A stretch of 64,000 nt of DNA, from assembly GCA_963763775.1 (NCBI GenBank), contig CAVXPZ010000003.1:160001-224000 (forward strand), in the 5' to 3' direction. Source of the stretch: an uncultured Chloroflexia bacterium. GTDB taxonomy: Bacteria > Chloroflexota > Limnocylindria > Limnocylindrales > CSP1-4. Positions 10,968-26,696 of the stretch are shown here, piece after piece. A model generated the notes under the pieces. It was given only the letters and a program-made list of their open reading frames with translations, ran no database searches and was not told the origin of the DNA. Positions within the stretch are counted from its first letter, which is position 1. Every line of letters starts with the position of its first letter. The translations under genes were made by a program, and so were the position numbers.

Positions 10968-11807
10968 ATGCCGATCGCCCGCGCATCGTCAAGACCCGAG
11001 CGCAAGCCACGCCCGAAGAAGCGCAAGTTCACCGATCCGGGACGGAGCTACGCGAAGCGGCTCGAGCGCTACCGTCCGGGACTGGTCACGTTCGTCCTCG
11101 ACGAGCTCGCCGGGCTGTACGGCCGCCCCAGGTGGGAGCGTCGGCTCGACCCGACGAGCGAGCTCATCCTCACGATCCTCACGCAGAACAGCGCCGACAT
11201 CAACGCCGAGGTCGCGTTCGAGGCGCTGCGACAGGCCTACCCATCCGGCTTGGCGACCGCGGTGCATCGCCCCGGGGGTGGCTGGGGCGGTGTCGGCCTA
11301 CCCGAGGGCGCGCCGCCCGACTGGGAGCGCGTCGAGTTCGCGCCGATCCCCGAGCTGACCGACGTCATCCGTCCGGGCGGCCTGGCCAACCAGAAGGCCC
11401 CGCGCCTCCAGGCGACGCTGCGGCGGATCCGCGAGGAGCGCGGCGACTACTCGCTCGAGTTCCTCGGGGAGATGTCGGCACTCGACGCCCGCGCCTGGCT
11501 GACCGGGATCGACGGCATCGGCAAGAAGACGGCGTCGGTGCTGCTGCTGTTCTCGTTCGGGATGCCGCTGATGCCCGTCGACCGGCATGTCGAGCGGGTG
11601 TCGCAGCGAGTCGGGCTGATCCCGGCGAAGGCCTCGGCCGACGACGCGCACGACCTGTACCTGGGCATGCTCGAGCCGGACCAGATGTACGAGGCGCACG
11701 TCAACCTCATCCGCCACGGCCGCCTCGTGTGCCACGCCCAGCGCCCCGAACACGAGCGCTGCCCGCTGCGAGACCGCTGCCGGTTCGTCGACCCGAAGGC
11801 GCCCTGA
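10968..11807 (+). CDS. nth: Endonuclease III (HhH-GPD DNA glycosylase)
   Basis: ILTILTQN, HhH GIGKKTA, PVDRHVERV, C-terminal Fe-S-type region CHAQRPEHERCPLRDRC (second Cys appears as His). Confidence 0.88.
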   Translation: MPIARASSRPERKPRPKKRKFTDPGRSYAKRLERYRPGLVTFVLDELAGLYGRPRWERRLDPTSELILTILTQNSADINAEVAFEALRQAYPSGLATAVHRPGGGWGGVGLPEGAPPDWERVEFAPIPELTDVIRPGGLANQKAPRLQATLRRIREERGDYSLEFLGEMSALDARAWLTGIDGIGKKTASVLLLFSFGMPLMPVDRHVERVSQRVGLIPAKASADDAHDLYLGMLEPDQMYEAHVNLIRHGRLVCHAQRPEHERCPLRDRCRFVDPKAP

Positions 11808-11865: not shown

Positions 11866-11898
11866 GCAAGGTGGCCGGCAAGGTTACTGTGTAGTACT
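11866..11898 (+). promoter_or_regulatory. Tad-operon upstream motif, copy 1: CAAGGT-N6-CAAGGT-N10-TACT
   Basis: GCAAGGTggccgGCAAGGTtactgtgtagTACT, with identical spacing to the copies at 15543 and 23349. Confidence 0.65.
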
Positions 11899-11929
11899 TG
11901 TCAGCCATCCCCCATCAGGACCTTTGGCA

Positions 11930-12584
11930 TTGCCGCTTCGACGACGCCGGAATGATCGAGCCCGTGGCCAGTCCCTGGCCGAGTTCGCCCTCGTCTTCCC
12001 GTTCTTCATGGTCATCCTGTTCGGCGTCATCGAGTTCGCGTTCGTCCTGAACGCGTCCCTCTCGGTCGAGTTCGCGACGCGCGACGCGGCCCTCGCCGCC
12101 GCCGAGGCCGGCACCACCCCCGGCGCCGACTGCTCGATCCTCAAGGTGGTCGAGGCGAGCATCGGGGCGCCTGCCGACAAGGCGCGGATCCAGGAAGTGC
12201 AGATCTATCGGTCCGACGCAAGCGGCCGCGTGAATGAGAGTCAATTCCTACGCACGAACTGGTGTCACTGTCGAAGGTCCGAACGCGACTACATGTCTGA
12301 TGGCTGACGGCACCAAATTGACCGTGCCGTATTCGGCCAATTCCATCGCCTACAAGGCAACGTCTCGCTGCAACGTCGTCAAGGGCTGCTGCAAGGACGC
12401 CAGCGGGAACGTGGTCCCGTTCACCGACAGTTGCCCGCCGGGGACGACCTTTCGCACGCTCGACACCATCGGCGTGCGAATCGCGTATCGCCACAAGTGG
12501 GTCACCCCAGCAGGGAGCGTCGTCGGAAGCGGAAACTTGGACCTCGTCCAATCGAACACGATGCGGATGGAGCCAGTCCTTTGA
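11930..12584 (+). CDS. TadE-like minor pilin (cassette 1, gene A), frameshift near 12234
   Basis: Class III signal RGQSLAEFALVFP plus hydrophobic helix and ATRDAALAAA. C-terminal half (…NTMRMEPVL) is in another frame and matches the paralogue at 15607. Confidence 0.8.
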
Positions 12585-13228
12585 GCCGAGCGCCGTCGCA
12601 TCGCCGAATGAGCCGATCCGGCCAGAGCCTTGTCGAGTTCGCCATCATCGTTCCGCTTTTCATGCTGTTGCTACTTGGCATGCTCGAACTCGGTCTGGCC
12701 TTCACTCATCATCAGACGCTTGAATACGCCACGCGGGAGGGAGCACGGACAGGATCCGCCCTTGCGAATGGGGGCGGAAAACTAGGTTGCGGTAGCGGGG
12801 GATCACCGAGTGCGGCGACCGTCGATCAGCAGATCGTGGCCGCCGTCGAGCGAGTCCTTACGTCCGAGGGCTCACCGGTCAAAGACAACTTGAGTCGGAT
12901 CCCCACCATCAGGATCTTTCTCGCGACGCCGACCGGCGGTGAGAGTGGCGCGAGCGTCGACGTGTGGAACTACAAGGCGGGAGCCGGGCCTGTCGTGGAC
13001 GGCAAAGCGCTTGATTACGTCGCCGGAACCACGAACTACCCTGCCTGCTCTCGGACATTCCAGCCACCGGCCCAGGCCCTGGGAGTCAGCCTCAAGTACA
13101 CATACCAGCTCCAGACTGGGCTGGGCGGCATCCTCGGCTTCTTCGGCGGCAAAGGCTGGACGTCGATCGCGATGAGCGATAGCACCGTCATGAATATCAA
13201 CCCGACCAATCTGAACTTCGTGCCGTGA
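12581..13228 (+). CDS. TadE-like minor pilin (cassette 1, gene B)
   Basis: SGQSLVEFAIIVPLFMLLLLGMLELG, ATREGARTG. TTGA coupling (alternative ATG at 12608). Confidence 0.85.
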   Translation: MSRAPSHRRMSRSGQSLVEFAIIVPLFMLLLLGMLELGLAFTHHQTLEYATREGARTGSALANGGGKLGCGSGGSPSAATVDQQIVAAVERVLTSEGSPVKDNLSRIPTIRIFLATPTGGESGASVDVWNYKAGAGPVVDGKALDYVAGTTNYPACSRTFQPPAQALGVSLKYTYQLQTGLGGILGFFGGKGWTSIAMSDSTVMNINPTNLNFVP

Positions 13229-15351
13229 CGAGGACAACGATGTCGCTCAATCCATCGCATTCGGCCACTCGCGTGGGCCGATCGCGCTCGCGCGGTCAGG
13301 TCGTGGTGATCTTCGCGGGTGCCATCTTGGCATTCGTGGCGCTGTGCGCGATCGTGGTCGATGTGTCTTGGTATTGGGCCAATACCCTTCGTGTGCAGCG
13401 CGCCGCAGACGCCGCGGCATTGGCGGGAGCGGTCTACCTACCCAGCGACTCAGACACGGCCTTCTCCGAGGCGCGCGCGGCGGCCAAGCGAAACGGCTAC
13501 ACCGATAACCTTGGCGGCGTGACGATCAAGACCTGGATCGACGACAACGATCCGCGGCAACTCGACGTTCAGATCAACGGCAGCGTCGGTTCGTTCTTCG
13601 CTCACGCGCTCGGCATCAATGCGTGGCCCGTTTCGCGGACGGGTGAGGGTGTCTATATCCAGCCCGTGCCTATGGGAAGTCCAGACGCCTACTACGGGGT
13701 CGGTGACTTCTATACGAACGTGAGTTCGACAACGACCGATCGATACGCTTCGGTGTCTCGCTCGCCCTATCAGTCCTCCAACGGCGGCCAGTGGCTGAAC
13801 CCGAATAATGCGTGGACGACCAACAACAACTTCACGACCGAGGACACGAACAATCAAACGCAGGTCTGGCAGAACCTCCAGATGCCCGCGATCCAGGGTG
13901 ACACCCTCGACGGAATCGTGGTGTCGTTCAGCGCCAAGGTGAGCGCTGCGTCGGCCGCCTGCAAGGTCCAGGCGGAGATTTCGTGGAACTCCGGCAATAC
14001 GTGGAACAACGCCAACCCGAAGCTCTTGAGCGGAAACCTGACGACCGCGTTGGTGTCATATCCAGTCGGTGACGCTGGCTCGCTGGCCGTTTGGGGGAAC
14101 AACAACGCCTGGGATGCGACGGACCTAGCGAATGGCGTCTTTCGTGTCCGTCTGAACTACCAGAAGGGCAACGGCTGCGGAACATTGTCCCTGAACTCGC
14201 TCACGGTGACGGCCTATTCGCATACGGACACGACGACCGTGACCCTGACAAAGTCGGTCGTCAAAGACCCGAACAACGTCGTACTCCCCAGTCGAGGCGG
14301 ATGGGGCGCGGTCATCACGCGCGGCGGCAACCAGGAGAACGGCGACGCGTACAGCCCCGAGAACGACGGCGGCGCATCCAATGGCATCTACGACTCCGGC
14401 GGCTACGACTACATCGTGAGCCTTCCGGCCGGCGGCACCGTCAATGTCTTCGACCCGGGGTTCTGTGCCATGGGGCAGGTGGCTGCAGGGAGCATCGGCA
14501 CGGGTGATCACTGGATCGCGGGTGCGTCCAACGATGTGTCCACCTACTACACGCTGTGGAATACCGGCGGCAAGCCAGGTCTACGGAGCACCTGGACGAG
14601 GCTCTACACCTCGGGACCGCTATTCGAGCGACAGCACGGCTATGACCCCGTGAACAACCTGAACCCCCCAAACGGTGCAACCAAGGGTTGTGACGCGTAT
14701 CACAACGGCTGGTGGACCATCCCCACCGGGAATCTTCTAGCCGGCCAATACGCCGTGCAAGTGCAGACGTCCAAGACCGCACCGCCTTCGACATCGGCGG
14801 ATGGTTCGATCAATGCCTCAACCAACGCCGAGAACATGTTTGCCCTCGAGGCGATCGGCGGGGGGAGCCCCCAGATCTACGGAAACGGCCGAATGGCCGT
14901 TTACAACAACCTTCGCCAAGGAAGTCCGACGCAGCAGTTCTACTTGGCGCAGATCGACCGACCGACTGGCGCAAGCAAGACGGCCCTCATCGACATCTTC
15001 GATCCGGGTGACGTCGCCGGTGAAGCGACGCTGAAGGTGCTCAGCCCGAACGGTGGCGGCCAGTCCGAAGCTACGTTCAGCTACACCACGGACGGCAACT
15101 GCAACGCCGGCGTCAGTGATGCGTGCTCTGGGTTGAATGTGAAGCAGCTGAAGACCGCCACCAACGGCAGGTCAAGCTTCAACAACACCTGGATCCACAT
15201 CAGCATCCCATTGCCGGCCAGCTATGGTGCGGGCGGGCTCTGGCAGGGCGGATGGTGGCAAATCCAATACATCACGCCCAACGGCGGAAATGACACCACC
15301 ACGTGGCAGGTCAACATCCAGGGCAATCCTGTGCACTTGGTCGTCCCGTAA
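13225..15351 (+). CDS. Large Tad-domain (TadG-like) pilus-tip/adhesin protein (cassette 1, gene C)
   Basis: RGQVVVIFAG, VDVSWYW, LRVQRAADAAALAGA Tad domain, long Asn/Gly/Thr/Trp-rich extracellular region with paired Cys, ends GNPVHLVVP. Confidence 0.85.
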   Translation: MTRTTMSLNPSHSATRVGRSRSRGQVVVIFAGAILAFVALCAIVVDVSWYWANTLRVQRAADAAALAGAVYLPSDSDTAFSEARAAAKRNGYTDNLGGVTIKTWIDDNDPRQLDVQINGSVGSFFAHALGINAWPVSRTGEGVYIQPVPMGSPDAYYGVGDFYTNVSSTTTDRYASVSRSPYQSSNGGQWLNPNNAWTTNNNFTTEDTNNQTQVWQNLQMPAIQGDTLDGIVVSFSAKVSAASAACKVQAEISWNSGNTWNNANPKLLSGNLTTALVSYPVGDAGSLAVWGNNNAWDATDLANGVFRVRLNYQKGNGCGTLSLNSLTVTAYSHTDTTTVTLTKSVVKDPNNVVLPSRGGWGAVITRGGNQENGDAYSPENDGGASNGIYDSGGYDYIVSLPAGGTVNVFDPGFCAMGQVAAGSIGTGDHWIAGASNDVSTYYTLWNTGGKPGLRSTWTRLYTSGPLFERQHGYDPVNNLNPPNGATKGCDAYHNGWWTIPTGNLLAGQYAVQVQTSKTAPPSTSADGSINASTNAENMFALEAIGGGSPQIYGNGRMAVYNNLRQGSPTQQFYLAQIDRPTGASKTALIDIFDPGDVAGEATLKVLSPNGGGQSEATFSYTTDGNCNAGVSDACSGLNVKQLKTATNGRSSFNNTWIHISIPLPASYGAGGLWQGGWWQIQYITPNGGNDTTTWQVNIQGNPVHLVVP

Positions 15352-15371
15352 AGGCTGAGCACACGGTTGAG

Positions 15372-15437
15372 GCCAACGACACCACGACCTGGCAGGTCAG
15401 CGTCAAGGGCAACCCGGTCCACCTGATCCTTCCCTAG
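15372..15437 (+). pseudogene. Orphan 3' end of a third TadG-like allele (ANDTTTWQVSVKGNPVHLILP*)
   Basis: 48/63 nt identical to 15289-15351, with many differences synonymous. It has its own TAG stop and no start codon. Confidence 0.85.
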
Positions 15438-15542
15438 GCCGTCGGACGGCCGCCCACGACCCCTCGGTATCGGGCCGGTGTGTGCCCATGTCCGCCGGGC
15501 CGGTGCGCCCATCCACCAGTGATTGACCCCGGGCCCTTGTGT

Positions 15543-15575
15543 GCAAGGTCTGGCGCAAGGTACCTCTGTAGTACT
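15543..15575 (+). promoter_or_regulatory. Tad-operon upstream motif, copy 2
   Basis: GCAAGGTctggcGCAAGGTacctctgtagTACT. Confidence 0.65.
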
Positions 15576-15606
15576 TGTCGCCCATCCCCCATCAGGACCT
15601 TTGGCA

Positions 15607-16188
15607 TTGCCGCTTCGACGACGCCGGAATGACCGTGAACGAGGCCAATCCCTGGCCGAGTTCGCGTTGGTCTTCCCGTTCTTCATCGTCATCCTGTTCG
15701 GCGTCATCGAGTTCGCGTTCGTCTTCAACGCGTACCTCTCGATCGACTTCGCGACGCGGGATGCCGCGCTGGCGGCAGCCGAAGCCGGCAACGACACCGG
15801 CGCCGACTGCTCGATCCTGCGGGCGATCGAGCGGAGCATCGGCGCGCCGGCCGACAAGGGCAGCATCGCGAAGGTCCGGATCTTCAAGGCCAGCACGACC
15901 GGTGCCAACCTCGGTCCGACCAACGTCTACACCCGGACCGGCGCGACCCCGTGCCCGGACGGGTCGGGCAGCATCCCGTACACCATCCAGTCCACCGGCT
16001 ACGCCGAGTCCGCGCGTTGCAACATCCTCGCCGGCTGCGGTCCAGGGTCCCTGACGGTCGACACGATCGGCGTCGAGATCACCTACACGTACGCCTGGAA
16101 GACGCCGTTGGCCCGCCTCCTGCCGATGAGCGGCAATGGCTACACGATGATCAAGGACAACGCGATGCGGATGGAGCCGGTCCTGTGA
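15607..16188 (+). CDS. TadE-like minor pilin (cassette 2, gene A)
   Basis: RGQSLAEFALVFPFF, ATRDAALAAAEAG, ends NAMRMEPVL. TTG start after AGGA. Confidence 0.85.
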   Translation: MPLRRRRNDRERGQSLAEFALVFPFFIVILFGVIEFAFVFNAYLSIDFATRDAALAAAEAGNDTGADCSILRAIERSIGAPADKGSIAKVRIFKASTTGANLGPTNVYTRTGATPCPDGSGSIPYTIQSTGYAESARCNILAGCGPGSLTVDTIGVEITYTYAWKTPLARLLPMSGNGYTMIKDNAMRMEPVL

Positions 16189-16763
16189 CCCGCGGGCGTC
16201 GTCGCGGCCAGAGCCTCGTCGAGTACGCGGTGACGGTCCCGGTCTTCCTCCTGATCCTGCTCGGCCTGCTGGAGTTCGGCTTCGCGTTCTCCCATCACCT
16301 GACGATGGAGTACGCGTCGCGCGAAGGCGCCCGCGTCGGCGCCGCCCTGGCCAACGGCACCGACCAGTTCCCGTGCGCAAAGGTCGACGACCAGGTCATC
16401 GCGGCGGTCCAACGCGTCCTTGTCGCGTCGGGCTCCCAGATCGACCTCAGCCAGGTCAAGGAGATCCGCATCTACAACGCGAACAACGTCAACGGGAACG
16501 AGGGGTCGCAGGTCAACCGGTGGCGACCCGGGACCGGCCCGGTCGTGCCAGGCGAAACGCAACCGCTCAAGTTCGCCTTCTTCTCGGGCAACTGGTCGGC
16601 ATGCAATCGCGTGAACGCCGCCGACCCGGACTCCATCGGCGTCGCGGTCTCCTACACCTACCGCTTCGTGACGCCGCTCGCGTCGCTCATGCGGATCGCC
16701 GGGCCGGCGGTGCTGCAGATGAACGACCGGACCGTCATGGCCCTCAACCCCACCGTACCGTGA
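16185..16763 (+). CDS. TadE-like minor pilin (cassette 2, gene B)
   Basis: RGQSLVEYAVTVPVFLLILLGLLEFG, ASREGARVG. GTGA coupling. Confidence 0.85.
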   Translation: MTRGRRRGQSLVEYAVTVPVFLLILLGLLEFGFAFSHHLTMEYASREGARVGAALANGTDQFPCAKVDDQVIAAVQRVLVASGSQIDLSQVKEIRIYNANNVNGNEGSQVNRWRPGTGPVVPGETQPLKFAFFSGNWSACNRVNAADPDSIGVAVSYTYRFVTPLASLMRIAGPAVLQMNDRTVMALNPTVP

Positions 16764-19055
16764 GCGTGCGATCGATGGAACCGATGACGAGCAGCGCGAC
16801 CACGGGCCGCCGCCACCGACCCCGCGGCCAGGTCCTCGTGATCTTCGCGGGCGCGCTGTTCCTGCTGATGATGATGGCCGCCATCGTCATCGACGTCTCC
16901 TGGTACTGGGTCAACTCGCTCCGTGTCCAGCGCGCCGCGGATGCGGCGGCGCTCGCGGGCGCCGTGATGCTCCCCAATGACCCGTCCACCGCCTACACGC
17001 TGGCCCGTGATGAGGCCAAGCGCAACGGGTACGTGCCCGGGGCCGTCGCGGGCGGCAACATCGTCATCACGCCGCTCCAGGACGGCGGCAACCCGCGTCG
17101 CCTGGACGTGACGATCTCGGCTCCGGTCGGGACGTTCTTCATGAAGGTGATCGGCATCCCGTTCATCAACGTGACCCGGACCGCCAAGGCGGAATTCACG
17201 CTCCCCGTGCCGATGGGCAGCCCGCAGAACTACTACGGCGTCGGCATCCTCAACGTGCCCACGGTCACCAGTAGGGCCACCGGCTGGCGCATCCGCAACA
17301 ACGAAGTCGGCAACTGGACCAACGCGATGCAGGCCGACAGCACGATCAGCAACTCCAGCAGCCAGTGGGCCGCGTCTCCGACCGGGAACAGCCCCCAACA
17401 GCAGTGGACCGAATTCGGCCTGGAGAACGGCGCCAACGCCGTTCCGAACGACGCGTCGCTCGAGGTCCTCGGGATCGAAGTCCGGTCACGCGCGTTCCTC
17501 CAGGGCAGCGGCAATTCGACCAGCGGCTGCCAGATGAGCGTCCAGCTGTCGTGGAACAACGGGAATAGCTGGACGACAGCCGAAGCGCAGAACAACCTGC
17601 CGACGTCGCCACCGCCGACCACGCCGGTCTCGGCGACCGTCCCCTACAACGTGAACCTGGGCAGCAATGCCGACGACTGGAACCACACCTGGTCGTATGA
17701 CGACCTGACGAGTACCGGCAGCTCCAGCTTCCGGGTGCGCGTGACGTTCAACAACCAGGCGGGGAACTGCTCCAACAGCCGGACCCTGGCGATCGACACC
17801 CTCGAGGTCCAGGTGTCCTGGCGTGTGACCGGCCCGCCGACGCCCCAGCCCGTCAAGGACCCGTACAACGCCGGGGTCCTCGCCCCACAGAAGTTCTGGG
17901 GCGCGATGCAGAGCCAGGGTGCGCCGAGCGTCCAGGGCGACGCCTTCATGACCGGCTATGAGACCCGGAAGTCCACGACCAACTCCGAGTACCACCCGTT
18001 GCAGGGCTACGGCGGCAGCTCGCAGGAGTACTACGACTACGGGGTCGAGCTCCCCGGGGGCGGCGGCGAGGTCTGGATCTACGACCCGGGGTTCTGCGAC
18101 ACCGGCTTGTACGGCTCGGGCAACAACGTCACGAACCAGGGAACCGGCGAGAGCTGGACCGTTGGTGGCTCGAATGGCGCGGATCCGGCCCGACCGGTCA
18201 GCGCGCAATACGTCCTGTACGACACGAACGGCACGCCCTACGAGTACGGCGACGATCCCGTCAAGGCGTCGTCCGGGAGCACGTTCCGACGGATGATGCT
18301 GTCCGATCCGAATCTGAGCGGCGGGTCAGGCGGGAGCTACCCGGGTGTCTCGAGCTGCGCAGGCCTCGCGTGGCACGACAACTGGTGGCGTCTCGCGAGC
18401 GGTCTTCCTGCCGGGACGTATCGGCTGCACACCACCTCCCGCATCTACAACCCGTTCGTGACCCCGAAGACGATCGATGGCTCGGACGACCAGACCGACT
18501 CGACCGGGTTGAACGCCTTCGCGATCTGGGTCAATTCGAGCAGCGGCAAGCCGCGGGTCTACGGCCTCGGGGCGATGGAGGCGTACTTCCCGCTGCCGGG
18601 CAACCAGACCTCGGTCTTCTACCTCGCGCAGATCGACAAGGTCCATGCCGGCAAGTGGGTCGACATCGACCTCTGGGACCCTGGGGACACGGGTTCACTC
18701 TCGGCGACCCTGCAGGATCCTGGCTCCCGATGGGGGCAGCGGGTCGATCCAGCCGTTCTACTGGAACGCCTGGACCGGGACGGACCTGCCGTCGAACTTC
18801 ACGTGTGGTCCGACCACCAGCAATCAGACGCAGAGCATCGTGACGAGCAACGGCAGCGGCGGCATCTTCAACGGCCGATGGCTGCGGATCTGCTTCAAGC
18901 TCGATGACAACTACGCCGCGCCGCTCGACCCGACGTTCAACGAGCCGGGGTGGTGGCGGATCAGTTACCAGATGACCGGCAGCGGCGCGAGCACCGACCT
19001 CACCACCTGGAAGGTCACCGTCCGCGGCAACCCCGTCCACCTCGTCATCCCGTAA
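16760..19055 (+). CDS. Large Tad-domain (TadG-like) protein (cassette 2, gene C), frameshift near 18716
   Basis: RGQVLVIFAG, IDVSWYW, VQRAADAAALAGA, PVPMGSPQNYYGVG, FYLAQID, IDLWDPGD. Continues in another frame to TTWKVTVRGNPVHLVIP*. Confidence 0.85.
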
Positions 19056-19118: not shown

Positions 19119-19835
19119 ATGTTGAGCACGCCGCGGCCGCGGATCCTGCTCGTCGACGACGACCCGAGCCTGCTCGTGGCGCTCGCCGAACTGCTTCGCA
19201 ACGACGGGTTCGTCGTCACGACCGCGCGGGACGGCGATGAGGCGCTGCGTCGCCTCGACCAGGGCTGGCCGGACCTCCTGATCATCGATCTGCTGATGCC
19301 CCGCATGGACGGCCTCAGCCTCGCCCGCGAGATCAAGGCCCGGGCCGACCTGCCGATCATCGTGCTGTCGGCCATCGACGCCGGCGACAACAAGGCGGAC
19401 CTCCTCGACGAGTTCGCCGAGGACTACATCACCAAGCCGTACCACTATGCGGAGCTCCGCGCCCGGATCCACCGCGTGCTGCGCCGGGTGGGCGACCGTG
19501 TCCCGCGCCAGGCCGTCCGCGTGGGCCCGGACCTCGTCCTCGAGCTGCATCGCCGCCAGGCGGTCGTCGGCGGCCAGGAGGTCGCGCTCACGCCGACCGA
19601 GTCGCGCCTGCTGTTCGCCCTGGCGGCGAACATCGGGCGGACCGTCACCACGGAGACGCTGCTGTCGCGTGGCTGGGCCGAGACCGACGAGGCCGACCCG
19701 TCCTATGTGTGGGTCACGATGCGACGCCTCCGCCAGAAGATCGAGGTGGACCCGAATGCCCCGCGCCATCTGCTGACCGTGCGCGGCGTCGGCTACCGAC
19801 TCGTCGGCGAACCGACGACGGGAGGCACGCCCTGA
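19119..19835 (+). CDS. OmpR/PhoB-family response regulator
   Basis: ILLVDDD, DLLIIDLLMP, DYITKPY, winged helix LTPTESRLL...LLTVRGVGYRL. CATACT 7 nt upstream. Confidence 0.93.
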   Translation: MLSTPRPRILLVDDDPSLLVALAELLRNDGFVVTTARDGDEALRRLDQGWPDLLIIDLLMPRMDGLSLAREIKARADLPIIVLSAIDAGDNKADLLDEFAEDYITKPYHYAELRARIHRVLRRVGDRVPRQAVRVGPDLVLELHRRQAVVGGQEVALTPTESRLLFALAANIGRTVTTETLLSRGWAETDEADPSYVWVTMRRLRQKIEVDPNAPRHLLTVRGVGYRLVGEPTTGGTP

Positions 19836-19909: not shown

Positions 19910-21366
19910 ATGCTCGACCTCTCTCCGCCGACCCCACGACGGCCGCCGCGGGAACCGGCCCAGTCGCGGTTCTCCTACCAGACTCGCCTGACGCTCGCGA
20001 TCGTCGCGGCCGCCGTCGTCCCGCTCGGCGCTGTTCGGGATCCTGCTGATCGTGACCGGGACGCTGGACCCGCAGCTCGGTGGGCGCATCCTGCTGTTCG
20101 TCGTCGCGGTGACGGTCGTCCTCGCCATCGTCGTCGGGTACGCCCTGAGCCTGAGCCTCATCGAGCCGCTCCGGGACATCGCGGACGCCGTTCGACGCGT
20201 GAGCGATGGCGACCTGTCGCAGCCGATCCCGGTCAACGGCTCCGACGTGCTCGCCCAGCTCGCGGAGAGCCACAACCGGCTCGTGGCCGACGCGGAGCGT
20301 CGCAACCGTCAGCTCGGCATGATCCTCGCCGCCGTCGAGCGCGCCTCCCCCGAGGACGGGACGGAAGCCCTCGCCGACCGGGCGACACGCGACGCGGAGG
20401 AGATCTTCGAGCTCATCGCCGGCGCGATCACGTTCACCGACCCGAAGGCCGTGCCCGAGGTGGAACGCGTCCCCGGCGACCCCCTGACCGTCCGCGCGGA
20501 CATGCGCGTCGGCGACCAGCCGATCGGCGTGCTGATCGGGCGGCTGCCGGCGACGAGGACCTGGGAGCGTGCCGATCAGGCGCTCTTCGAGCTCTATGGG
20601 AGCGAGATCGCGGCCGCCGTCCGGAACGCCCAGCTGTTCGCGCAAGTCGAGGCCCAGAACGCCCAGCTCCGCCAGCTCGACGAGGCGAAGGACGACTTCC
20701 TCCGAGGCGTCAGCCACAACCTCCAGACGCCGCTGACGCGGATCAAGGCCAACGCCGAGGGCCTCGAGCGCACGGTCGACGACCCACGGCTCGGGAGCAT
20801 CAGCGACCAGGCGGACCGGCTGTCGCGGATGGTGGCGCAGCTGCTCCTGGTCGGCCGGCTCGGCTCGGGCCAGCTCCGGCCGCAGGCGGACGTCATCGCC
20901 GTCGGGGCGCGGATCCGACGCGCGTGGGACGCGCTCGCCGCGGAAGGCCGGGCGTTCGACCTCGACGACGCGTCGGGCGGCTGGCTGGCCGTCGCCGACG
21001 GCGACCAGCTCGACCAGGTCCTGTGGGCGCTCCTCGACAACGCGGTCAAGTACGGCGAGGGCGGCGTCGACGTCGCGATCGGCGCCGACGACGAGGGCCG
21101 CCGCGGTGTGGGCCACGATCACGTCCGGCGGGCCGGGTCTCACCGAGGCGGATCGCGAGTGGCTCTTCGAACGATTCGCCCGCGGTGCGACCGGTCGCGC
21201 GACCGGCGACGGGAGCGGTCTCGGCCTGTACGTCTCCCGGGCGCTGATGCGAGGCATGGACGGCGATCTCGACCTCGACCCCGCCGAGCCCGGACGTGGC
21301 GCTCGGTTCCGGCTGACCCTTCCCGGCGAGCCGCCACCGGTCGACGCGGAGTCCGGGCGTGGCTGA
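19910..21366 (+). CDS. Sensor histidine kinase (TM-HAMP-GAF-like-HisKA-HATPase), frameshifts near 20027 and 21100
   Basis: HAMP (PLRDIADAVRRVSDGDLS), H-box VSHNLQTPL, N-box LLDNAVKY, FERFARG, GSGLGLYVS. Start position uncertain. Confidence 0.82.
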
Positions 21367-21502
21367 GCGGAATTCTGTGGCGCGTTCGCGCACCACTGGT
21401 GCACCGAATCCACCACGGCGGCGACCGGAGCGGCGAGACTGTAGGGGACGCCGTGCGCACCCGCGGCTACGTACGACGACGCCCGACACCGAGGTCCAGA
21501 CG

Positions 21503-22490
21503 ATGACGGAACAAGAACGACGACGCCGACGGTCCGTGCACCTGCGGATCGGCGCGGTCCTGGCCCTCTGCCTGGTCGGCGCCGTGCCGGTCGTCGTCGC
21601 GATGGCCGCGTCACCCGACCCCGGTTCGTCGGCGCCGACCCGCGGCTCCTGCCGCCACCGCCGACCCGTCCGGCACCACGAGCAAGCCGGCCGGCGACGG
21701 CAAGGGCGGCCTCCGGCTCGACCTGCGCGGGTTCGGTGGCGGGATCGATCTCGGCCGCGGCGGGATCACGATCACCGCGATCAACGGCTCGAGCATCTCC
21801 CTCAAGACCGATGACGGCTGGACGCGGACGATCACGGTCACGCCGGACACCAAGATCCGGAAGGGCGGCCAGGACGCGACGGCCGCGGACCTCGCGGTTG
21901 GCGACAAGATCCGGCTCGCCCAGAAGCGCAACGACGACGGCACCTACACGGTGACCGCGATCGCGGTGCCGACGCCGAGGACGGGCGGCGAGGTCAGCGC
22001 CATCAGCGGCGACACGCTCACGCTGAAGCGTCGGAACGGCGAGACCCAGACGGTCACCCTGACCGGCTCCACCAAGTACACCTTCGGCAAGGATGCCGGG
22101 ACCAAGGCCGACGTCACGGTCGGGTCGCAGGTGACGGTCGAGGGCACGACGTCCGGGACCGACTTCACCGCACTCTCGGTCCACGTCCAGCCGACCGTCG
22201 TCGCCGGCGAGGTCACCGCCAAGACAGCCACCAGCCTGACGCTGAAGCAGCGCGACGGCTCGACGATCGTCGTCCATGTCTCGGCCGACACCAAGTACGG
22301 GCTCCGCGGCGGCAAGACCGGCGGACTGGCCGATATCGCCGTCGGCGACAAGGCGTGGGCCTCGGGCAAGACCCGCGGCGACGGCTCGCTCGATGCGACC
22401 GGCGTCGCCAACGGGTTCGGCCGTGGCAAGGGCGACCACAAGGACGCGAAGCCGGGTTCCTCGGCCGCACCGAGCGCGACGGCCGGCTGA
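21503..22490 (+). CDS. Exported protein with repeated OB-fold-like DUF5666-type domains, frameshift near 21640
   Basis: Signal/TM segment IGAVLALCLVGAVPVVVAMAA, then three repeats of the pattern G.ITAI.G..LTLK...T...DL.VGD.V. Confidence 0.65.
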
Positions 22491-23381: not shown

Positions 23382-23467
23382 CGACCCCTGATGTCGTGCG
23401 CCGGGGGGCATGCGTCATCCATACGACGCCAACGCGTCGTCATCCTCGCGACCCAGGGACCCCCCGG

Positions 23468-25078
23468 ATGCCACACCTCGTCCCCACCGACGCCCCCACG
23501 CGTCGGCGCCGCCCGCTCCTCCCGACCGCCCGATCGACGTCCCGCCCGCGCGGGACCCGGCGCAGCCGTGGGCAGGCCCTCGTGGAACTCGCCCTCGTCA
23601 CGCCCCTCCTGTTGCTCCTCTTCGCCGCGGCCGCCGACCTCGGCCGTGCCTTCTATGCCTATGTCGCCGTCGAGAACGCCGCGAAGGAAGGCGCGCTCTT
23701 CGGCTCACGCGCGCCGCTCTGCGACGCCAGTACGGGCGGGGCGTGCACCGATCCGAACAACGTCACGTGGCATGTGCAGCAGGAGCTCCAGAACCTGCGT
23801 ATGCCCGACGGGACGACGCCGGTCCCGACGGTCCAGTGCCTCGATGCGAGCAACGGGGCACCCCGAACCGCGCTGAAGGACTGCGCCGAGGGCGATACCT
23901 ATGCCGTCGGCGTCCAGGTGCCGTTCAAGATGCTGACACCGGTCCTCGGCAGCCTCATCGGGAACCTTCAGATCGCGTCGACGTCGCGCGCGGTCGTCCT
24001 GAACCTCGCCTTCGACCCATCGCCGGGTTTGAGCGTCCAGAAGTTCGTGCAGCCTACCGGCGCCATCAATGCCTCGGCGATCACCTCGAAATGCCTCGAC
24101 CCAAACGACCGCGATGCGGCCGGCTACTACCGCAGCCCGTGCCTCGACCTCTCGACGCCGGATCCGACCGACAAGCTGTGGGTGCACTTCGAGCAAGGCG
24201 ACACGATCGCGTACAAGATCGCCTTGCGGAACACGGGGGCGCAGAACCTGTCCGGCATCACGGTCGTCGATTCGCGCGGCTCGACCGGTTGCTCCTTTCC
24301 CACGTCGCTCGCCGCGGGTTCCTCGGCCTTCACCTGCACCTACACAAGGACGGCGCCGACCGTTTCCGGCGTGCCCGACTCGATGGACTACGCGAACACC
24401 GTCACGGTGGACTCGTCCGGGACCTTGCCGTCGCAGGACGGCGTCACCGTCGTCGTCGAGCGCCCGCCAGCCGAGTTCCAGGTCCTCAAGTGGGTGAGCC
24501 CGTTCAAGGAAGGTGACGACGGCGACGGGACGCCCGGGTTCGGGACGCAACCCACGGTGGCCGTGAGCTACAGCGCGCAGATCCCGCAGCCCGCGGTCTG
24601 GTTCAAGGTCATCGTCCGGAATGTCGGAGGGCGGACGGCCAGCGCGGTCGCGATCGCCGACTCCCACGGGGCCCTGCCATACGGACAGAACAACGCCACG
24701 GCCGTCTGCGACGCGGCTCCGACGAGTCTGGCCGCGAACGGGATCTTCCAGTGCAGGTACCGCGTGACCTATGCCTCGGCGCAGGTGGCCACGAACACGG
24801 TGTCGGCGACGAGTCCGGACGTCACGCCCGACAGCAACGACACGGCCACCGCGACGGCCACGGTCACGGCGTGCACCGGCGCCACTCGGGTCGTGCCGGA
24901 CCTGATCGGCCTGGCCAAGGCCGCAGCCCAGACCGCCTGGACCAGCGCCGGGTTCACCGGCACCTTGTCCGTCTGGAGCGGTCAGCCGAGCGCCACGGTC
25001 GTGACCCAGACGCGCCCGGCGTACGGCTGCATCGCCGCCAACTCGACGATGACGATCGGAAGGACGACCACGCCATGA
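23468..25078 (+). CDS. TadE-like pilin fused to two Ig-like (DUF11/DUF7507-type) repeats and a C-terminal PASTA-like domain
   Basis: RGQALVELALVTP, ENAAKEGA. Repeats GDTIAYKIALRNTG..LSGITVVD and WFKVIVRNVG..VAIAD, each ending NTV. Tail VVPDLIGL..AAAQTAW..AGF. Confidence 0.78.
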   Translation: MPHLVPTDAPTRRRRPLLPTARSTSRPRGTRRSRGQALVELALVTPLLLLLFAAAADLGRAFYAYVAVENAAKEGALFGSRAPLCDASTGGACTDPNNVTWHVQQELQNLRMPDGTTPVPTVQCLDASNGAPRTALKDCAEGDTYAVGVQVPFKMLTPVLGSLIGNLQIASTSRAVVLNLAFDPSPGLSVQKFVQPTGAINASAITSKCLDPNDRDAAGYYRSPCLDLSTPDPTDKLWVHFEQGDTIAYKIALRNTGAQNLSGITVVDSRGSTGCSFPTSLAAGSSAFTCTYTRTAPTVSGVPDSMDYANTVTVDSSGTLPSQDGVTVVVERPPAEFQVLKWVSPFKEGDDGDGTPGFGTQPTVAVSYSAQIPQPAVWFKVIVRNVGGRTASAVAIADSHGALPYGQNNATAVCDAAPTSLAANGIFQCRYRVTYASAQVATNTVSATSPDVTPDSNDTATATATVTACTGATRVVPDLIGLAKAAAQTAWTSAGFTGTLSVWSGQPSATVVTQTRPAYGCIAANSTMTIGRTTTP

Positions 25079-25542
25079 CGCCCGAACGGACCCACCGGCG
25101 ACGTGGGCAATCCCTCGTCGAATTCGCCCTGGTCCTCCCGATCTTCGCCATCCTGCTGTTCGGCATCATCGACTTCGGCCGGTTCGTGTACGCGGCCAAC
25201 GCCCTGAACAACGGTGTCCGTGAGGGTGCCCGCTCCGGCTCCGTCACGATCCGACCGTCACCGCTTTGCGACGGTCTGAGCCGCGATGCGTGTGTCAAGG
25301 CGGTCGTCGCCAACCTCTCCTGGGGCGTCCCGGGCAGCTCGATCACCACGACGGTGACCTGTGAGCGCGTGGTCCCGAACAACCCGACGCCGCAGCCGGT
25401 CATCCCGATTTCGGGCTGCCGCACCAACGACCTGCTGCGGGTGAAGGCCACGGCGCCGTTCACGCTCGTGACACCGCTCATCGCGCAGTTCCTCGGCGGA
25501 CGGACGCTCTCCGGCGAAGCCCTGGTCACCGTGAACCAATGA
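25075..25542 (+). CDS. TadE-like minor pilin
   Basis: RGQSLVEFALVLPIFAILLFGIIDFG, VREGARSG, TPLIAQF. ATGA coupling. Confidence 0.88.
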   Translation: MTPERTHRRRGQSLVEFALVLPIFAILLFGIIDFGRFVYAANALNNGVREGARSGSVTIRPSPLCDGLSRDACVKAVVANLSWGVPGSSITTTVTCERVVPNNPTPQPVIPISGCRTNDLLRVKATAPFTLVTPLIAQFLGGRTLSGEALVTVNQ

Positions 25543-25592
25543 TCCGCGCCACCCGCCCTCTCGTCCCCTCGCGACCCTCGAAGGAGCCCCCG

Positions 25593-26696
25593 ATGCGCCT
25601 CGCCCGCTCTCCACGTTCCCGATCGCCACGCGGCCAGATCCTGGTGATCGTCGCGGGCGGCCTGATCGGACTGCTCGCCATCGGCGCGTTCGCCCTCGAG
25701 GGTGGCACGCTGGTCCTCAATCGTCGCGATGGGCAGAACGCCGCCGATCTCGCCTCCTTGGCCGGCACCCGGATGGTGGCCTTGAGCCACACGGCGTCGG
25801 CGACCGGCGCCGACGTGTTCACGGCCATCCAGGGGTCGCTGGACAGCAACGACTGCCATGCAGCTTCGGGGACGCCGTGCACCTGGACCGCGCGGTTCGT
25901 CGGGGCCGGCCTCGCCGACCTCGGGGCGGTCTCCGGCAGCGGGACCGTGCCAGGGGCGGCGCTCGGCGTGCGGGTCGGCGTCACCCGCCAGCCCGGCGCC
26001 ATGCTGGGCCGAATCCTCGGGTTCGACCACTGGACCGTCACGACCGAGGCCACGGCCATCGCCGCCGAGCCGTCCCAGTTCCCCACCGGGATCCTGCTCC
26101 CGATCGCCCTCTGCGGTTGGGGACAGACGGGCGTCAATGACTGTCTGCAGGCTTCGAACAGTCCGGCCAACGTCATCAAGTTCCAGCCCAACCAGATCTA
26201 CGACATCACGGACGGCATGGATGCCCCGGGCGGGTTCGGCTGGTTGTCCTGGACGGGATCGAACTCAGCGGGCGCCCTTTCAGACAGCATCTGCACCCCC
26301 GACAACATCGGTTTCTCCCTCGACAACCCGTTCAATTCCCCCGGTACCTACAGCGGGACGCCCGGGACCAACCCGGCGGACGGGGAGACATGGTTCCCCG
26401 CCGATCCCGGGAAGTCGAACAAGGCCTCGATGCGAGCCTGTCTCGACGGGTGGATCTCCAGTCGAGCGACCGTCCTCATCCCCGTCTACGACATCGTCAC
26501 GGGCAATGGCAACAACGCCGCGTATCACATCACCGGCGTCGCGGCGTTCGTCTTGACATCGCGGGAGCAGCCAGCCGTCGACAACATCCAGGGTTACTTC
26601 GTGCAGTACTACCCGTACACGGACGTCCCGGGTGGGCTGGGGACCCAGCCACCAGGGCCGGACGACACGACGTACTTCCTGGGTCTCGTGAAGTAG
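25593..26696 (+). CDS. Tad-domain (TadG-like) protein
   Basis: RGQILVIVAGG, RRDGQNAADLASLAG, PGGFGWLSW, VLIPVYD, YHITGVAAF. AAGGAG RBS (alternative start 25539). Confidence 0.8.
   Translation: MRLARSPRSRSPRGQILVIVAGGLIGLLAIGAFALEGGTLVLNRRDGQNAADLASLAGTRMVALSHTASATGADVFTAIQGSLDSNDCHAASGTPCTWTARFVGAGLADLGAVSGSGTVPGAALGVRVGVTRQPGAMLGRILGFDHWTVTTEATAIAAEPSQFPTGILLPIALCGWGQTGVNDCLQASNSPANVIKFQPNQIYDITDGMDAPGGFGWLSWTGSNSAGALSDSICTPDNIGFSLDNPFNSPGTYSGTPGTNPADGETWFPADPGKSNKASMRACLDGWISSRATVLIPVYDIVTGNGNNAAYHITGVAAFVLTSREQPAVDNIQGYFVQYYPYTDVPGGLGTQPPGPDDTTYFLGLVK

Follow-up and report, generated by a model that had tools for sequence, protein, structure and literature searches.

Why does the last piece of a TadG-like gene, without the gene itself, lie directly behind an intact TadG-like gene? 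The question is raised by a 64,000-nt stretch of DNA (the window) from an uncultured Chloroflexia bacterium of the CSP1-4 lineage (assembly GCA_963763775.1). The window corresponds to C3:160001-224000 (contig CAVXPZ010000003.1), has a G+C content of 70.7% and belongs to a 3.3-Mb, four-contig metagenome-type assembly of 87% completeness. A slot in it, flanked by an endonuclease III-like gene on one side and a response regulator/histidine kinase pair on the other, holds two tandem tadE-tadE-tadG cassettes. By analogy with known systems, the TadE, TadE and TadG products of such cassettes would sit at the tip of a pilus. The orphan piece lies between the two cassettes. We consider it probable that one-sided homologous recombination, together with an illegitimate join on the 3' side, replaced a resident cassette of one allele type (Y) with a cassette of another type (X) and left behind the last 67 nt of the resident tadG.

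The codons of the fragment at 15375-15437 read NDTTTWQVSVKGNPVHLILP and end with the stop codon TAG. The upstream gene (gene 1, ORF 13225-15351), which encodes the 708-aa protein TadG1, terminates in ...NDTTTWQVNIQGNPVHLVVP-TAA, and 23 nt (15352-15374) separate this TAA from the first codon of the fragment. The two ends are identical at 48 of 63 nt. Among the 60 coding nucleotides there are 14 differences, 8 of them at third positions, and 5 of the 20 residues differ. The ends are offset by 86 nt and are therefore in different frames. Identity to the end of the TadG-like gene in cassette 2 is 47/63 nt. An earlier annotation made from the letters and open reading frames alone (the sequence-only reading) had described a start-less family C-terminus directly behind the 708-aa gene and different from the end of cassette 2, and these counts bear out both points. 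The word "start-less" holds in that no TadG gene stands in front of the fragment. Formally, however, its frame is open for 32 codons upstream and forms a GTG-started ORF (15303-15437, 44 aa) whose GTG lies inside gene 1; by visual reading, no AGGAGG-like ribosome-binding sequence precedes this GTG.

The match of the fragment to TadG ends exceeds chance. A tblastn search of the whole 3.3-Mb genome with TadG1 recovers the fragment at E = 2.9e-4, and a Y-type C-terminal query matches it with 90.5% identity over 21 aa at E = 1.4e-10 (tblastn, 476 kb). A conserved tail, ...TTW.V.I.GNPVHL..P-stop, closes every TadG-like gene inspected. The fragment is the only orphan among the five instances of this tail motif in the genome and among 19 + 8 + 14 instances in loci fetched from relatives and from the genome itself. 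The 19 come from the window region, a second locus in the same genome and 13 loci of relatives, the 8 from eight further loci, and the 14 from another twelve loci, which include two places already covered. Some of these tail-bearing TadG genes are split over frames, but the fragment alone lacks a TadG gene in front of it. In a relaxed tblastn search for decayed orphans in 34 sources, all other matches below E = 1e-6, among those listed, end TadG genes. Two local origins were considered and rejected. A tandem duplication of the end of gene 1 does not agree with the identity of the fragment to its neighbor (48/63), which is among the lowest, compared with 54-59/63 to other ends. A copy from the second Tad locus of the genome matches at 54/63, and the body of a Y-type gene is absent from the genome.

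A gene with this end in place was found on a 2861-nt metagenome contig (L061), retrieved with the degenerate pattern WQVS[VI]KGNPVHL[VI]. L061 begins partway through a TadG-like ORF, which runs open over 141 codons and ends ...EPGWWQVAYNINAANDTTTWQVSVKGNPVHLILP-TAG, with a tail that reads ...YNINAANDTTTWQVSVKGNPVHLILP-TAG. The end of this ORF and the fragment agree at 20/20 aa and 59/63 nt and share the same TAG, and the four differences are all synonymous third-position changes. By blastn, L061 aligns with the window in one block of 983 nt (78.4%), which starts at window base 15371, takes in the spacer, leader and tadE2a and reaches into the beginning of tadE2b. Judged from this alignment, the remnant truly begins at 15371, 4 bases left of the first codon assigned in the sequence-only reading. 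L061 carries orthologs of cassette 2 (TadE2a, 155/181 aa; TadE2b, 153/185 aa; N-terminal part of the Z-type TadG2, 211/325 aa). The best match of its TadG-like ORF in the genus is the Y-type gene of genome G003, which lies in the slot between the endonuclease III-like gene and the response regulator (78% over 430 nt). Within the genome that contains the window, only sequence from 15371 onward matches the L061 ORF; hence, the body of the Y gene is absent. These alignments largely support the view that the fragment is the remainder of a Y-type gene that would once have stood directly upstream of cassette 2.

The claim that the fragment is the remnant of a displaced resident allele thus finds support in L061, where the same 20 residues form an in-frame TadG-like end and the downstream sequence is colinear. 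In substance, L061 agrees with the expectation that a relative would carry the fragment as the end of an intact gene, although that gene is visible for its last 141 codons only. We also considered homology reaching left to 15357 ("EHTVEA" versus "EYNIKAA") and rejected it, since L061, the closer relative, is colinear only from 15371. Behind the Y-type stop, L061 has a GC-rich inverted repeat as a 22-nt tandem duplication (L061:432-475), of which the window has one copy.

In congeners, the orthologous slot carries one of three TadG allele types. X-type cassettes (57% aa identity to TadG1 and 66-69% to TadE1b) occur as single cassettes in G122, G081 and G120. Y-type genes, which end EYNI[KN]AANDTTTWQVSI[KR]GNPVHL.., are found in G003, G128, G142, G020 and G031, and Z-type genes (TadG2-like, with a TDLTTW tail) in G017, G033 and G019. 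Y and Z cassettes have a common tadE type, E2, and X cassettes have a tadE type of their own. The order in the window is X, then the Y-type fragment, then Z. Across 131 genomes of the genus, the best nucleotide matches of the fragment are Y-type ends (G128, 91%; G142, 89%), and it matches the Y-type end of G003 at 55/63 nt. The endonuclease III-like gene lies upstream of the Tad cassette in every mapped orthologous locus (79-93% aa identity), and the response regulator and histidine kinase adjoin the cassette in G003, G017, G019, G033, G081, G120, G122 and G142.

Two loci of relatives, L037 (G024:C1, 8746-8920) and L039 (G015:C7, 8423-8515), have one TadG-like gene directly followed by another with no tadE between them. 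In loci L030, L031, L034, L040, L071 and L077, from metagenome-assembled genomes with few contigs and 60-90% completeness, TadG-like genes are often split over frames. These splits probably reflect long-read indel errors and are not countable as pseudogenes without the reads.

The slot and its flanks comprise the following features, all on the plus strand of the window:

10968-11807, +, endonuclease III-like gene, left flank of the slot (Pfam HhH-GPD and EndIII_4Fe-2S).
11866-12142, +, A block: leader and 5' part of tadE1a, of the resident (E2) type (identity, protein grouping, GC content at third codon positions [GC3]).
12143-15370, +, X-type segment, probably imported (Pfam TadE/Tad, X-type orthologs, GC3).
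15371-15437, +, orphan 3' end of a putatively displaced Y-type TadG-like gene (4 nt, then the last 20 codons and TAG).
15438-15542, +, resident intergenic spacer (aligns with the L061 spacer at 58/104, plus 23 gap columns).
15543-19055, +, cassette 2, Z type (Pfam, reading frames, orthologs in L061, G017, G033 and G019).
19119-19835, +, response regulator, right flank of the slot (Pfam).
20052-21506, +, histidine kinase, right flank of the slot (Pfam).

The X-type segment consists of the rest of tadE1a, tadE1b (ORF 12431-13228), the TadG1 gene (13225-15351) and a 19-nt tail (15352-15370). The spacer opens with the inverted repeat GGCCGTC-G-GACGGCC and has no homolog in the 131 genus genomes. 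Cassette 2 comprises the leader A', tadE2a (to 16188), tadE2b (to 16763) and a TadG-like gene (about 16790-19055).

The left boundary of the X-type segment lies inside a gene. The A block (11866-12142) is identical to its counterpart A' (15543-15819) at 239 of 277 nt, and identity then drops to 56/93 in 12143-12235. The N-terminal part of TadE1a groups with E2-type TadEa proteins and not with the X type. From about "APADKARI" onward, the protein is of the X type, including an insertion in common with the X-type TadE of G120, and the reading frame is kept across the switch. tadE1a is an in-frame chimera, with an E2-type 5' part to approximately 12143-12200 and X type beyond. The gene also has a 1-nt frame break near 12244 (12229-12247), inside the X-type part; its two frames together give a full-length X-type TadE, and the break looks like a 1-nt indel.

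Composition changes at the same place. GC3 is 0.9-1.0 in the endonuclease III-like gene, the A block, the fragment, cassette 2 and the regulator but approximately 0.6-0.85 across 12237-15351. The onset of this decrease coincides with the switch in tadE1a, and the value is back to 0.93 at the fragment. Individually, tadE1b has a GC3 of 0.725 and the TadG1 gene 0.79, compared with 0.90 ± 0.03 in 20 long ORFs of the window and 0.91-0.93 in cassette 2. The genome median is 0.88; among the 1,949 genome ORFs that passed a crude coding filter, tadE1b is the third lowest, and the TadG1 gene falls in the lowest tenth. The body of the X cassette (about 12150-15370) stands out as a compositional island of low GC3. 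Host-like third positions in the fragment had been offered as an argument for its resident origin. This argument is weak for the fragment itself, in which 19 of 20 codons end in G or C compared with 17 of 20 at the end of gene 1 (when 27 codons are counted from 15357, 25 end in G or C; P = 0.045, given a fraction of 0.78 in the cassette), and strong for the body of the cassette. The in-frame chimera and the coincident fall in GC3 likewise agree with the proposal of a homologous 5' side.

The right boundary is of a different kind. The 19 nt between the TAA of gene 1 and the remnant (15352-15370) have no match in L061 or in the regions downstream of relatives' X-type genes, and this 19-mer occurs once in the genome. 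Such unmatched sequence fits an illegitimate join on the 3' side, as the sequence-only reading had it.

Collectively, the two boundaries suggest the following course. The ancestral slot would have held two tandem cassettes, Y type first and Z type second. Linear DNA with approximately 3.2 kb of an X-type cassette would have come in from a related lineage of lower GC3. A crossover by homology in the conserved 5' part of the first tadE, at about 12143-12200, would have formed the left joint, with the A block serving as the anchor. The right end would have been joined illegitimately, 19 nt past the TAA of the X gene and 20 codons before the resident stop, so that approximately 3 kb of resident DNA was swapped for approximately 3.2 kb. 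The outcome would be a new TadG allele with its own stop and the old tail out of frame, followed by the untouched spacer and cassette 2. The pattern is that of homology-facilitated illegitimate recombination (HFIR). An E2-type 5' block and a Y-type 3' tail are the two end leftovers expected of a Y cassette. The order of events, the single-step mechanism, the route of DNA entry and the fragment's lack of function are points that we infer.

The incoming cassette had been called foreign. It is compositionally odd, but because X-type cassettes occupy the same locus in three congeners (57% aa identity), the donor of the X segment was probably a related lineage.

The same arrangement could also be a deletion scar. 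According to this alternative, an X-Y-Z array lost everything from behind the X stop to 20 codons before the Y stop, and the 5' part of tadE1a was converted separately by cassette 2. Multi-cassette arrays are present in relatives and in the second locus of this genome (G015, G017 C1, G024, L071), a single deletion accounts equally well for the fragment and the unmatched 19 nt, and tandem copies of the leader and tadE 5' part could convert each other. The A block bears on this conversion. L061 matches A at 224/277 and A' at 245/277; because A' is nearer to L061 than to A, A is an old paralog and not a fresh copy of A'. The A/A' pair appears to date from around the split from L061 or from before it, which would fit a resident two-cassette array and argues against a recent conversion of A by A'. 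In addition, the low-GC3 island starts at the chimera point of tadE1a, as expected of an entry junction, and a long-resident X cassette would be expected to have a GC3 near that of the host, like the X-type genes of congeners (0.88-0.96). Deletion also needs two events where replacement needs one. We regard the deletion scar as unlikely.

The replacement looks recent. Compared with L061, the fragment has no changes at 42 first and second codon positions, whereas the spacer differs by 44% and the four-fold sites of neighboring genes by 42-56%. Neutral change after the gene was lost would amount to at most approximately 0.07 substitutions per site (95% upper bound). The unchanged 42 positions and the un-ameliorated GC3 of the insert are the grounds for a recent date, and recency would in turn explain why the fragment looks intact.

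Several observations weigh against replacement of a Y cassette. Because the L061 contig breaks off within the Y gene, it shows neither a complete Y cassette with its 5' block nor a position next to the endonuclease III-like gene, and a Y cassette followed by this spacer was not found in the 131 genus genomes. The C-terminal 63 nt are conserved across all paralogs (75-91% nt identity); therefore, the matches of the fragment in genus genomes would not by themselves settle its origin, and the Y-type assignment rests mainly on L061, the "K" and "LI" residues and the preceding GCC (Ala) codon. A search for the donor of TadG1 in species-representative genomes found nothing closer than 57-64%, with a GC3 of 0.82-0.92. 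The third positions of the fragment (17/21 identical to L061) are more conserved than the four-fold sites of its neighbors (P about 0.013), which a pure decay model does not predict. Finally, assembly support was checked with Logan contigs of low depth, taken from four runs within one study. Among the matches listed from the four runs, none bridges the TadG1 end and the fragment (15351-15371), and two contigs that match the fragment and spacer, from runs X1 and X4, lose their fit at 15371, beyond which 14 and 10 letters, respectively, do not match the window.

These contigs raise the possibility of an assembly artifact, in which the X and Y forms come from different co-occurring strains and were misjoined at 15351-15371. 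The exact stop at 15371 and the missing bridge are what such a misjoin would give, and the assembly is of the four-contig metagenome type, at 87% completeness, with frame breaks in tadE1a and TadG2. It also differs by 1 nt from two short-read contigs: those from X1 and X4 each lack one base at 15469/15470 relative to the window. The assembly probably has (homopolymer) indel errors; consequently, the two frame breaks may not be real. The joint itself, however, lies outside shared sequence, and the C-terminal copies are only 76% alike, which leaves no overlap for a strain switch. The left joint is a clean in-frame chimera. Moreover, one and the same run (X1) holds contigs 100% identical to the 5' part of TadG1 and a contig 99% identical to the fragment and spacer (15371-15610); the X4 contig matches 15371-15509 at 97%. 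On balance, we find a misjoin very improbable. Apparent contig joints at 15397>19026, 12646>16239 and 12649>16237 were dismissed as cross-matches of conserved motifs, and an exact 32-mer comprising the fragment end and the hairpin had 0 matches in metagenome contigs.

The non-fitting letters left of 15371 hint that the same samples contain a form with other sequence to the left of the fragment. One could go further and propose that the swap is so recent that strains with an intact Y-type gene and strains with X plus the scar coexist, sharing a spacer that is 97-99% identical, and that the tail is a reusable handle. This extension is doubtful. If true, the tadE 5' block and the 63-nt tail would be portable recombination handles, by which any Tad tip cassette could enter any slot.

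The conserved third positions raise a further alternative, namely that the fragment was kept because it is useful, either as a homology anchor for later exchange or as part of an expressed small ORF (15303-15437). It has no non-synonymous changes relative to L061, the GTG ORF formally exists, and the GNPVHL..P tail, which is modeled with low confidence in TadG1, may bind a partner. Yet nothing points to a maintained class, since no other orphan was found in the genome or in the fetched loci. A scan of 15200-15700 found no promoter-like site, and the sole terminator-like site there is on the minus strand (15296-15309) and outside the spacer. Folding of 15345-15545 showed no unusual RNA structure (z = +1.48). 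A 20-codon piece that lacks the pilin helix cannot become part of a pilus, and a recent origin accounts for the missing decay. A retained role is thus hard to credit, and the fragment probably has no function of its own.

The assignment of the genes to the Tad family is clear: the four small ORFs of the slot score above the curated cut-off for PF07811, and the two large ORFs do so for PF13400. In the 708-aa TadG1, the Tad (TadE/G-like) domain lies at the N-terminus. An AlphaFold2 model of TadG1 based on 17 sequences (mean pLDDT 76.2, pTM 0.59) predicts a long N-terminal helix (residues 23-69) followed by beta-rich domains, an architecture that is pilin-like in the model. A Foldseek search of this model against the PDB gave no clear match, with TM scores of at most approximately 0.2 and low-TM beta-sandwich look-alikes only. 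The tail G-N-P-V-H-L-x-x-P (TadG1 residues 700-708, window 15322-15348) is conserved in 17/17 aligned TadG-like proteins. The last seven residues of TadG1, which are invariant, are the only conserved part modeled below a pLDDT of 50, and the tail may be a candidate partner-binding peptide.

TadG2 has a frame change near 18718, with its N-terminal part in the frame of 18302 and its C-terminal part (ending TDLTTWKVTVRGNPVHLVIP) in the frame of 18300. This shift is either a pseudogene mutation or an assembly indel. The region of the shift (18700-18730) contains GATC and CCTGG.

A Tad/Flp pilus machine is represented in the same genome by a single T2SSE-family ATPase (C3:337159-337989), approximately 113 kb past the end of the window, and by three weak Flp-like matches just upstream of it (C3:333280-334152), all below the Pfam cut-off. 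The second Tad locus of the genome (C1:841522-850337; L002, L004, L005) contains two tadE-tadE-tadG cassettes. Its first TadG-like gene is split over several frames, and its second (846678-848840) is intact, with a GC3 of 0.94. A third and different Tad-like set lies downstream of the histidine kinase, at 23396-26696 of the window. It consists of a 560-aa protein with a TadE N-terminus and DUF7507/DUF11 repeats, a small TadE-like ORF (25000-25364) and a 443-aa Tad-domain protein. Such extra sets also adjoin the slot in G003, G017, G128 and G142.

The locus can be read as a sequence-level record of natural tip exchange, in which one slot holds at least three allele types across the genus. Both junctions are still readable, the in-frame tadE crossover on one side and the illegitimate joint behind the new tadG on the other. 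Orphan GNPVHL..P-stop tails would be usable as a marker of past tip replacements.

A tip complex made of TadE/TadF/TadG-like minor pilins has been predicted for the Tad pilus and would set what the pilus binds or does, and Myxococcus has four interchangeable paralogous tip sets, KilL/M/N (PMC12075869). As in the Myxococcus sets described in the portions of that paper used here, each cassette in the slot encodes two small TadE-type pilins and a large TadG-type protein with a variable extra domain. Again as in Myxococcus, several sets per genome lie away from the motor genes, here as two two-cassette loci and a third set. The same portions of PMC12075869 concern parallel paralogous tips in one strain and describe neither allele replacement in one slot nor leftover ends. 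We found no description of Tad tip-cassette scars in an open-access literature collection, which is not proof of their absence in print.

Closer parallels come from other loci. In the available sections of a report on transformable bacteria (PMC3240628), HFIR likewise combines one homologous anchor with one illegitimate joint, and foreign DNA replaces that of the recipient. According to the parts of PMC5361080 considered here, displacement of the HFIR type that leaves orphaned 3' pieces has been proposed for type VI secretion (T6SS) clusters of Vibrio cholerae and for rhs loci. In HFIR, the illegitimate joint usually falls at a few bases of microhomology. The slot resembles rhs, cdiA and T6SS loci in its incoming module, its conserved upstream anchor, its non-homologous downstream join and the start-less remainder of the old allele's 3' end immediately after the new gene. 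The likeness to rhs/cdi orphans proposed in the sequence-only reading therefore holds for the mechanism but not for the content of the orphan. The rhs, cdiA and T6SS orphans carry a variable toxin tip and/or an immunity gene and can be reused or protective, whereas the orphan in the window consists of only the 20 residues conserved across the family, with no variable module and no gene before cassette 2. In addition, the TadG genes differ from these systems in being conserved at both ends, not at the 5' end alone, and in encoding minor pilins, not toxins. The probable displacement scar is a known kind of event in a new setting, the Tad pilus-tip cassettes of uncultured soil Chloroflexota, and it carries a logic familiar from polymorphic toxin loci over to an uncultured phylum and a locus for a surface appendage.

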